Virus record (IMG/VR): IMGVR_UViG_3300045988_085459
DNA length: 64,000 nt
Strand: one strand, 5' to 3'
Origin: a virus
Shown: positions 21,526 to 21,581 of the stretch, one piece after another
How the letters are laid out: every line of letters begins with the position of its first letter
How positions within the stretch are numbered: the stretch's first letter is position 1
Notes under the pieces: model-generated
Databases searched by the model: none
The model's input: the letters and a program-made list of their open reading frames with translations, nothing else
Told to the model about the DNA's origin: nothing
Program-made: the position numbers and the translations under genes

Positions 21526-21581
21526 CCTCGTTCTGCTCCGAGTTTCCGTTCGCGCAGGCTCACCAAATTTTTCTTTCAAAA
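21526..21581 (+). repeat. 56-nt conserved element (second copy at 47731-47786, one mismatch)
   Basis: cctcgttctgctccgagtttccgttcgcgcaggctcaccaaatttttctttcaaaa; both copies sit just downstream of a strong terminator and upstream of a variant promoter. Confidence 0.6.

Follow-up and report, generated by a model that had tools for sequence, protein, structure and literature searches.

In the 64,000-nt stretch of phage DNA analyzed here (IMG/VR virus record IMGVR_UViG_3300045988_085459; the window), a noncoding sequence of 56 nt occurs at two sites 26.2 kb apart. What does this sequence do, and what has kept its two copies alike? An earlier note on this DNA offered four answers: a regulatory protein site, a late-promoter element, a recombination site bounding a module, and a small RNA or its target. 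The first three each hold in part, the first two as one regulatory reading and the third as a module boundary; the small-RNA option is not supported.

A 56-nt repeat upstream of two TAG-containing operons

Every gene in the window lies on the + strand, and the G+C content is about 36%. The window carries 31 tRNA genes, one of them a CTA-anticodon suppressor (27598 to 27672), plus a tmRNA, and several of its genes are open only when TAG is read as sense. In TAG-recoded phages, the code change is thought to delay structural and lysis genes (PMC10879173). The annotated phage collection holds no DNA match to the window; the best match to its PhoH protein among annotated phages is 40% identical (Alicyclobacillus, Geobacillus, and Bacillus phages). 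Related contigs cluster at 141 to 148 kb, which is probably the genome size of the phage group, and two related phage-like contigs sit in "uncultured Eubacterium" MAGs. A highly conserved early promoter-plus-leader cassette (TTGAAAAA...TGATATAATATTTATAGAAAGTTAAGGAAAGGAAG) is present in about 17 copies in the window (e.g., at 9063 to 9116, 14021 to 14074, and 18949 to 19002), usually with a terminator directly adjoining.

The repeat has the sequence CCTCGTTCTGCTCCGAGTTTCCGTTCG(C/T)GCAGGCTCACCAAATTTTTCTTTCAAAA and forms a G+C-rich island within A+T-rich intergenic DNA at both sites (Table 1). Its reported 55/56 match at two distant sites is confirmed: the sole difference is at element position 28, which is C at site 1 and T at site 2. 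With up to three mismatches allowed, the window contains exactly two matches, versus 0.00 expected from 100 shuffles; the repeat is beyond chance expectation. It appears in the repeat listing of the window as family D17 (98% identity), and a search of the window with a 15-variant profile yields only these two copies (E value of 0.34 for the next match). Both sites are seen in many independent metagenome assemblies, indicating that the repeat is not an artifact of a single assembly. Further, the two copies are identical (56/56) in most close relatives, so that T28 at site 2 of the window represents a CpG-to-TpG change private to this sequence.

Table 1. Positions in the window of the repeat, its blocks, and the neighboring transcription signals and operons
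Feature	Position	Strand	Description
Element copy 1 (site 1)	21526..21581	+	Upstream of tail fiber operon; same site in close relatives
Element copy 2 (site 2)	47731..47786	+	Ancestral location in wider phage group
Block 1, copy 1	21536..21548	+	CTCCGAGTTTCCG; element positions 11 to 23
Block 2, copy 1	21556..21573	+	AGGCTCACCAAATTTTTC, includes A3T5 tract; element positions 31 to 48
Block 1, copy 2	47741..47753	+	CTCCGAGTTTCCG; conserved across variants
Block 2, copy 2	47761..47778	+	AGGCTCACCAAATTTTTC; conserved across variants
Intrinsic terminator closing tRNA-array transcription unit	21487..21515	+	12-bp stem, 5-nt loop, T-rich tail TTTCTGTTGT
Intrinsic terminator 3' of SPFH/Band-7 gene	47687..47715	+	13-bp stem, then TTCTTTTGCC
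Candidate weak tail fiber promoter	21602..21630	+	GTGAAA-17-TATATA, TG-extended; by eye, uncertain
Sigma-70-type promoter, extended -10	47797..47825	+	TGGATT, 17 nt ending TGA, TATAAT; families D1/D3
Downstream operon 1	21680..26147	+	85-aa gene, then four tail-fiber-like genes with in-frame TAG
Downstream operon 2	47864..52502	+	153-aa gene, PhoH-PIN, NAGPA-SPOR, lysozyme-amidase-SLH, small membrane protein

Each copy follows a strong terminator, as the earlier note had described; the terminator is intrinsic, and the copy begins 10 to 15 nt past it. Site 1 lies between tRNA-Met (21327 to 21402), the last tRNA gene of the array, and TAG-containing tail-fiber-like genes, three of which encode an Mtd_N-like N terminus (two are matched by Pfam); as the earlier note had stated, this is where the tRNA array meets the TAG-rich structural block. 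Site 2 is flanked by an SPFH/Band-7 gene (46786 to 47682) and the second operon. In-frame TAG codons occur in both downstream operons; in the second, they number one in the 153-aa gene, two in the NAGPA-SPOR gene, and nine in the lysozyme-amidase-SLH gene. Scans of Pfam and PHROGs assign no family to the products of the first genes of the two operons (85 aa and 153 aa).

Both copies had also been said to precede a variant promoter. This is so at site 2, where the element is followed by a sigma-70-type promoter whose counterparts in relatives read TTGATT-17-TATAAT or TATCAT. At site 1, no canonical sigma-70 promoter is found by a consensus scan, and the candidate in Table 1 lies in a region homologous to the corresponding region of the more distant relatives (group B, below). 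Other promoters in the window stand 0 to 13 nt from their terminators, with no comparable insert. The element is an insert between a terminator and a promoter, which elsewhere in this phage form a compact cassette.

The element belongs to the downstream unit

To place the element in its wider context, we compared about 60 related phage contigs, retrieving the site-2 regions of relatives through the PhoH gene. Exact and degenerate searches of IMG/VR detect the window-type element only in near-identical phages and in the sister lineage 075249, with no more than two copies per related contig of about 147 kb. Its presence in related phages, which the earlier note had proposed to check, extends to both sites in close relatives and to site 2 in group B phages, whose PhoH is 70% identical.

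Site-2 sequences were compared from IMG/VR and metagenomes; in all 24 distinct ones, the element is followed by the same promoter (-35 TTGATT or TGGATT) and the same first gene. The distance from AAATTTTTC to the -35 hexamer is 17 to 19 nt in all group A and group B site-2 sequences, and a homologue of the 153-aa gene follows the promoter in every case in these two groups. The DNA on the left is not conserved. At least four unrelated combinations of upstream gene and terminator adjoin the left edge of the element at site 2, including an SPFH gene with two different terminators, a gene ending in ...SSNKE, a gene ending in ...HPNNN, and the type seen in contig L215; homology of the window to the genome of type 084596 (contig L329) resumes at 47714. 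Different terminators also occupy the site-1 position in relatives, and on this comparison the site-1 terminator is outside the conserved element. The variety of upstream modules indicates that the left edge is a mosaic junction, and the constancy of what follows indicates that the element belongs to the downstream unit rather than to the terminator. The tie to the upstream terminator implied by the earlier description is therefore mistaken.

Two conserved blocks flank a variable spacer

The site-2 sequences reveal a bipartite architecture: block 1, CTCCGAGTTTCCG, is followed by seven variable bases and then by block 2, AGGCnCAnCAAATTTTT, which ends in an A3T5 tract. Across 20 distinct variants, element positions 11 to 20 and 23 are invariant, and positions 21 and 22 are nearly so. 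Positions 31 to 47 are likewise invariant or nearly so, with A31, G33, C34, C36, C39 to A41, and T43 to T47 unchanged in all 20. Between the blocks, positions 24 to 30 vary freely, by transitions only, and positions 1 to 10 are variable as well.

The AATTTTT tract is retained even in the most distant versions of the element. Indeed, a collinear arrangement of GCTC(C)G(A)G, about 20 to 22 nt, (A)AATTTTT, about 17 nt, and a -35 hexamer is found in contigs L201, L202, and L207 and at site 1 of group B, and it persists where PhoH is only 55 to 70% identical. The gene downstream of site 1 in group B likewise contains in-frame TAG.

The spacer (21549 to 21555 and 47754 to 47760) has a substitution pattern of its own. 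In otherwise near-identical group B intergenic regions (L186 to L200), it changes only by transitions at CpG, TpG, or CpA, giving forms such as CGCGTAT, CACGCAT, TGCGCAT, CGCACAT, and CACATAT. This pattern suggests a hotspot of cytosine deamination, possibly linked to methylation, or avoidance of restriction sites of the GCGC/CGCG type.

The two copies evolve in concert

The near-identity of the two copies is confined to the window lineage and its sister. Elsewhere among the relatives, the site-1 and site-2 versions within one genome are about 50 to 77% identical. In group B, they agree at only about half of their positions, and the site-1 19-mer is single copy. The close relatives 084596 and 093451 have a site 1 of the window type, or nearly so, and a group-B-like site 2, the two being about 77% identical.

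Three positions that are free to vary across the family carry lineage-specific states: the window lineage has T7, T24, and T35 at both sites, and the 075249-like lineage has C7, A24, and C35 at both sites. Lineage-specific states common to both sites at unconstrained positions indicate concerted evolution by gene conversion. Further, contig L215 holds a chimeric copy of the element. Judging from these patterns, the near-identity of the copies is a product of gene conversion between two paralogous upstream regions, not of unusually strong selection.

Compared with close relatives, the element ranks 988 of 6,873, 337 of 3,394, and 1,183 of 1,709 among 56-nt windows; it falls within the top 10 to 14% against the sister lineage and below the local average against contig 093451. 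The earlier note had taken the level of conservation as a sign of function. The 55/56 identity, however, reflects recent gene conversion rather than exceptional purifying selection.

Junctions at the element and the case for recombination

The ends of at least nine contigs fall within about 90 nt of the element, and several of these contigs are from group B, which has no long intragenomic repeat. The group B breaks are best explained by coexisting strains that have the element and the downstream DNA in common and differ upstream. In two contigs, the element joins the flank of one site to that of the other. Contig L353 (OGPC01001942.1) joins window positions 45513 to 47786 to 21526 to 28729 and continues to 30485, and contig L327 (OGPY01001342.1) joins 20406 to 21581 to 47731 to 59871. 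These are the reciprocal junctions expected of recombination between direct repeats, and they are equally what an assembler would produce at an exact 56-nt repeat; they are probably assembler chimeras rather than recombinants. An exact repeat with a mosaic left edge can break or misjoin metagenome assemblies of this group of ~147-kb gut phages, and curators should check contigs that end at the element or switch context through it.

The same observations bear on two readings in which recombination is what the element is for. One is a programmed site at which exchange between the direct copies would excise or duplicate the 26.2-kb segment, with its tail fiber genes and suppressor tRNA, as a switch. 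Contig L353 would then be the circle or duplication junction and L327 the deletion junction, the two reciprocal products, and the mini-circles formed by promoter-early stem-loop (PeSL) cassettes would be a precedent (PMC2839356). We regard a programmed switch as extremely unlikely. Both contigs are short (11.3 and 18.8 kb), reach only about 2 kb into the "wrong" side, and come from strains in which the 56-mer is exact, as assembler misjoins at a repeat would. The element has no linked recombinase gene, a deletion would cost the phage its tail fiber genes and suppressor tRNA, and 084596 and 093451, with copies only 77% identical, retain the same gene order. Should the two junctions nevertheless be real, with the direct copies working to excise or amplify the 26-kb cassette of tail fiber genes and TAG-suppressor tRNA, which is very improbable, a single mobile module would link the genes for host range with the genetic-code switch.

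A more modest reading takes the 56 nt as nothing but a recombination patch, a homology "linker" at module boundaries that would stem from, and serve, illegitimate or homologous exchange, resembles PeSL cassettes, and has no regulatory role. Much of what we observe is consistent with such a patch: a left edge that is a mosaic junction for at least four upstream modules, at least nine contig ends within about 90 nt (group B contigs included), two contigs that cross between the sites, copies that evolve in concert with one chimeric copy among them, and conservation against close relatives that is unexceptional. PeSL-mediated shuffling is, moreover, documented in T4-type phages (PMC2839356). Still, in phages whose neighboring proteins are about 70% identical, the two blocks are invariant and the bases separating them are not, the -35 hexamer stays 17 to 19 nt away, and even very divergent versions show this architecture. 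Such a pattern would not survive in a neutral stretch of homology, and a linker with no other role is thus unlikely.

RNA, coding, and other candidates

Could the element act as RNA? A small RNA, a 3'-untranslated or read-through element, a ribozyme, or the target of a small RNA would suit a G+C-rich island beside a tRNA array in A+T-rich intergenic DNA, and recoded gut phages are known to carry HDV-like theta ribozymes (PMC10879173). The element is placed after strong terminators and before promoters, however, and the nearest tRNA ends 124 nt upstream (at 21402) at site 1, with none at site 2. Its fold energy is like that of shuffled sequences on either strand (z of -1.0 to +0.2), and the predicted hairpin is paired in 70% of cells across 20 variants, a level equaled by 203 of 500 shuffles. 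Similarly, the 20 variants show no covariation in the element, Rfam gives no match on it at the gathering threshold or at an E value of up to 10, and folding of both strands and of the terminator-plus-element context places nothing on it. A transcribed RNA element is accordingly a most improbable explanation, and the small RNA or target offered in the earlier note is not supported, on the same grounds of fold, Rfam, and position.

Several more specific candidates were rejected. A theta ribozyme would have to lie within 5 nt of a tRNA, versus 124 nt here with a terminator in between, and a reading of ...GCAGGCTCACCA as the T-arm and acceptor of a tRNA fragment does not pair when inspected by eye. 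The element is not coding, having no start codon or open reading frame in any frame and substitutions that are not codon-like. A sigma-54 promoter is suggested by TGGCA-N-TTGCA at site 1 of group B, but that motif is spaced one nucleotide too long and is absent from other versions. A miniature inverted-repeat or other small mobile element is at odds with the ends CCTCGTTC and TTTCAAAA, which are not inverted repeats, and with flanks (TGTTGT/ATGGGG and CACTAG/TCCTTA) that show no target-site duplication. For a host-derived sequence or attachment site, a scan of a genome collection gave random matches and two phage-like contigs in Eubacterium MAGs. A general late-promoter motif fails for want of a third copy in the window and of more than two copies per IMG/VR contig; with only two copies per genome, the element does not serve late promoters in general, and TAG-rich genes elsewhere, e.g., that at 59405 to 60316, have no copy.

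A candidate control site for two recoded operons

Starting from the anatomy, conservation, downstream linkage, concerted evolution, and mosaic junction established above, we propose that the element may be a bipartite upstream protein-binding site with an A-tract that co-regulates two TAG-recoded late operons, a reading that we hold at about even. It would be cis-regulatory DNA of the downstream promoter, with blocks 1 and 2 as two candidate protein contacts. The block centers are about 22 bp apart, or roughly two helical turns, so that both would face one side of the helix. At site 2, the element would span about -100 to -45 relative to the predicted start of the sigma-70-type promoter. In divergent relatives, too, the distance between the conserved blocks and the core promoter is fixed, as is expected of an activator or repressor site. 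The poor core promoter at site 1 and the poor -35 hexamer at site 2 are likewise as expected of factor-dependent promoters. Unusually for the site of a dimeric regulator, the element shows neither a clear dyad nor clear direct repeats, and its sole inverted repeat (CTGC...GCAG with CGA...TCG) is not conserved, pairing in 70% of cells as shuffles do.

One putative factor, by activation or repression, may switch both presumably late operons, the tail fiber genes and the PhoH/lysis cassette, together; the site might otherwise act as insulation against read-through. It could be phage encoded, as the window has winged-helix-turn-helix-like proteins, among which a MarR/TrmB-like protein at 61273 to 61668 is a candidate; alternatively, the A/T tract may contact the alpha subunit of the host RNA polymerase. 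TAG-reassigning phages reportedly use the code change to delay structural and lysis genes (Borges et al. 2022), and from the literature on recoded phages, operons with TAG should be expressed only once the suppressor tRNA is available. Separately from any regulatory role, the likeness of the two copies lets homologous recombination (gene conversion) keep them nearly identical in the window lineage, and the left edge of the element doubles as a junction for swaps of upstream modules between phages.

The element might instead be all or the upstream half of a promoter used by a phage-directed form of RNA polymerase. A phage sigma-like factor or a phage RNA polymerase would then recognize block 1 and the A/T tract, with transcription starting just downstream. 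Two conserved blocks at a fixed distance would fit such a promoter, as would the noncanonical core promoter at site 1 and contigs L202 and L207, in which an element-like sequence leads into a gene with no obvious sigma-70 promoter between them. We nevertheless consider this quite unlikely. At site 2, every group A and group B phage has a well-conserved sigma-70-type promoter with an extended -10 downstream of the element, the element has two copies per ~147-kb genome where phage-specific promoters usually have many, and no RNA polymerase or sigma factor gene is seen in the scanned parts of the window. Further, the 22-nt gap between the blocks fits no sigma spacing known to us.

As a protein-binding site, the element would involve no new kind of mechanism. 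It would be a testable candidate control site common to two recoded late operons, bearing on the transcriptional timing of such genes in uncultured phages, and its conserved blocks are ready bait for DNA-binding proteins.

Comparison with known systems

The UP element, a binding site for the C-terminal domain of the RNA polymerase alpha subunit, reportedly has the E. coli consensus AAAWWTWTTTTNNAAAA and spans -59 to -38, right next to the -35 hexamer (Estrem et al. 1998). The A/T-rich 3' part of our element, AAATTTTTCTTTCAAAA (21565 to 21581 and 47770 to 47786), also lies upstream of the -35 hexamer and matches 14 of 15 specified positions of the consensus. Its register differs. At site 2, with the start taken from the predicted promoter, the tract is 4 to 5 nt upstream of the canonical position: the final AAAA ends 10 nt before TGGATT, at about -49 to -46 versus -44 to -41. 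At site 1, the final AAAA is 20 nt before the best -35 candidate, versus 9 to 10 nt at site 2. Group B keeps only AAATTTTTC, and UP elements have nothing comparable to the G+C-rich 5' two-thirds of the element.

Activator sites of phage late promoters include those for Ogr/Delta of P2/P4, near -55, Mor and C of Mu, and p4 of phi29, as well as class-I-type sites. Like these, the element is a short conserved DNA tens of base pairs upstream of a weak or partial sigma-70-type promoter, combines a specific part with a bendable A/T tract, and is repeated before a few operons that would come on together late. In contrast to them, it has no dyad, its conserved sequence is longer, at about 40 nt, it is placed further from the promoter (about -100 to -45), it has only two copies, and it is known here with candidate regulators only.

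PeSL cassettes are repeated sequences of T4-type phages (Arbiol et al. 2010, PMC2839356; Comeau et al. 2014, PMC4122927). Similar to them, the element is a repeated noncoding sequence at terminator/promoter junctions that marks module boundaries and whose copies recombine with each other, and two contigs show putative circle and deletion junctions at it; at its left edge, it coincides with the endpoints of insertions, deletions, or replacements between related genomes. The PeSL repeat, however, consists of a promoter and a stem-loop and has many copies in hyperplastic regions, whereas our element is an insert between a terminator and a promoter that are not shared, in two copies that both precede putatively late operons. 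Indeed, the identity of the copies starts past the terminator and stops before the promoter, and the flanking terminators and promoters differ between the two sites. A closer analogue of PeSL is the early-promoter family of the window, with its 17 copies.

In recoded gut phages, theta ribozymes, a minimal HDV-like type, are located no more than 5 nt from a tRNA (PMC10879173). The setting is alike, with a TAG-recoded gut phage, a tRNA array, and a short G+C-rich noncoding element near tRNA-Met, but the element lacks conserved pairing and a ribozyme match, and its second copy is far from any tRNA. By analogy, then, the element may resemble late-promoter activator sites in function, the UP element in part, and PeSL as a recombination substrate. 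It departs in defining features from the UP element (position), from PeSL (repeat composition and copy number), and from theta ribozymes (structure and tRNA adjacency).

Further observations on the phage genome

The tmRNA at 17282 to 17602 (76.8 bits in Rfam) lies inside the tRNA array, which extends from 9435 to 28729. A tRNA match at 19970 to 20086 spans 117 nt, suggesting that it contains an intron. In contig L327 (12275 to 13008), about 734 extra nt lie between the positions corresponding to 21364 and 21394 of the window, interrupting or abutting tRNA-Met; this DNA could be an intron or another insertion. The gene at 59405 to 60316, which has no element upstream, contains eight in-frame TAG codons and encodes a GIY-YIG-like C terminus (...YIGQSVDIKERFRQH...).

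The 153-aa protein (47864 to 48325) and a 110-aa protein (26499 to 26831) have by eye an N-terminal pattern in common, ...V(I/A)VS.Y.GK...G.AK..P.D.F...; the 153-aa protein has no match in PHROGs, and the 110-aa protein matches phrog_9910, of unknown function. Finally, the window gene at 20394 to 21287 carries an in-frame deletion of 228 nt between 7-nt direct repeats, CGCAGGT (20827 to 20833). The deletion removes the Walker-B/sensor part (...GLLSLFDGIDNGKKLFVITCNDTRKLNEFLINRPGRFHYHFEIG...) of an AAA+ ATPase (phrog_2376), a part that is intact in all five close relatives examined (L088 to L092; e.g., L089, positions 3441 to 3668).
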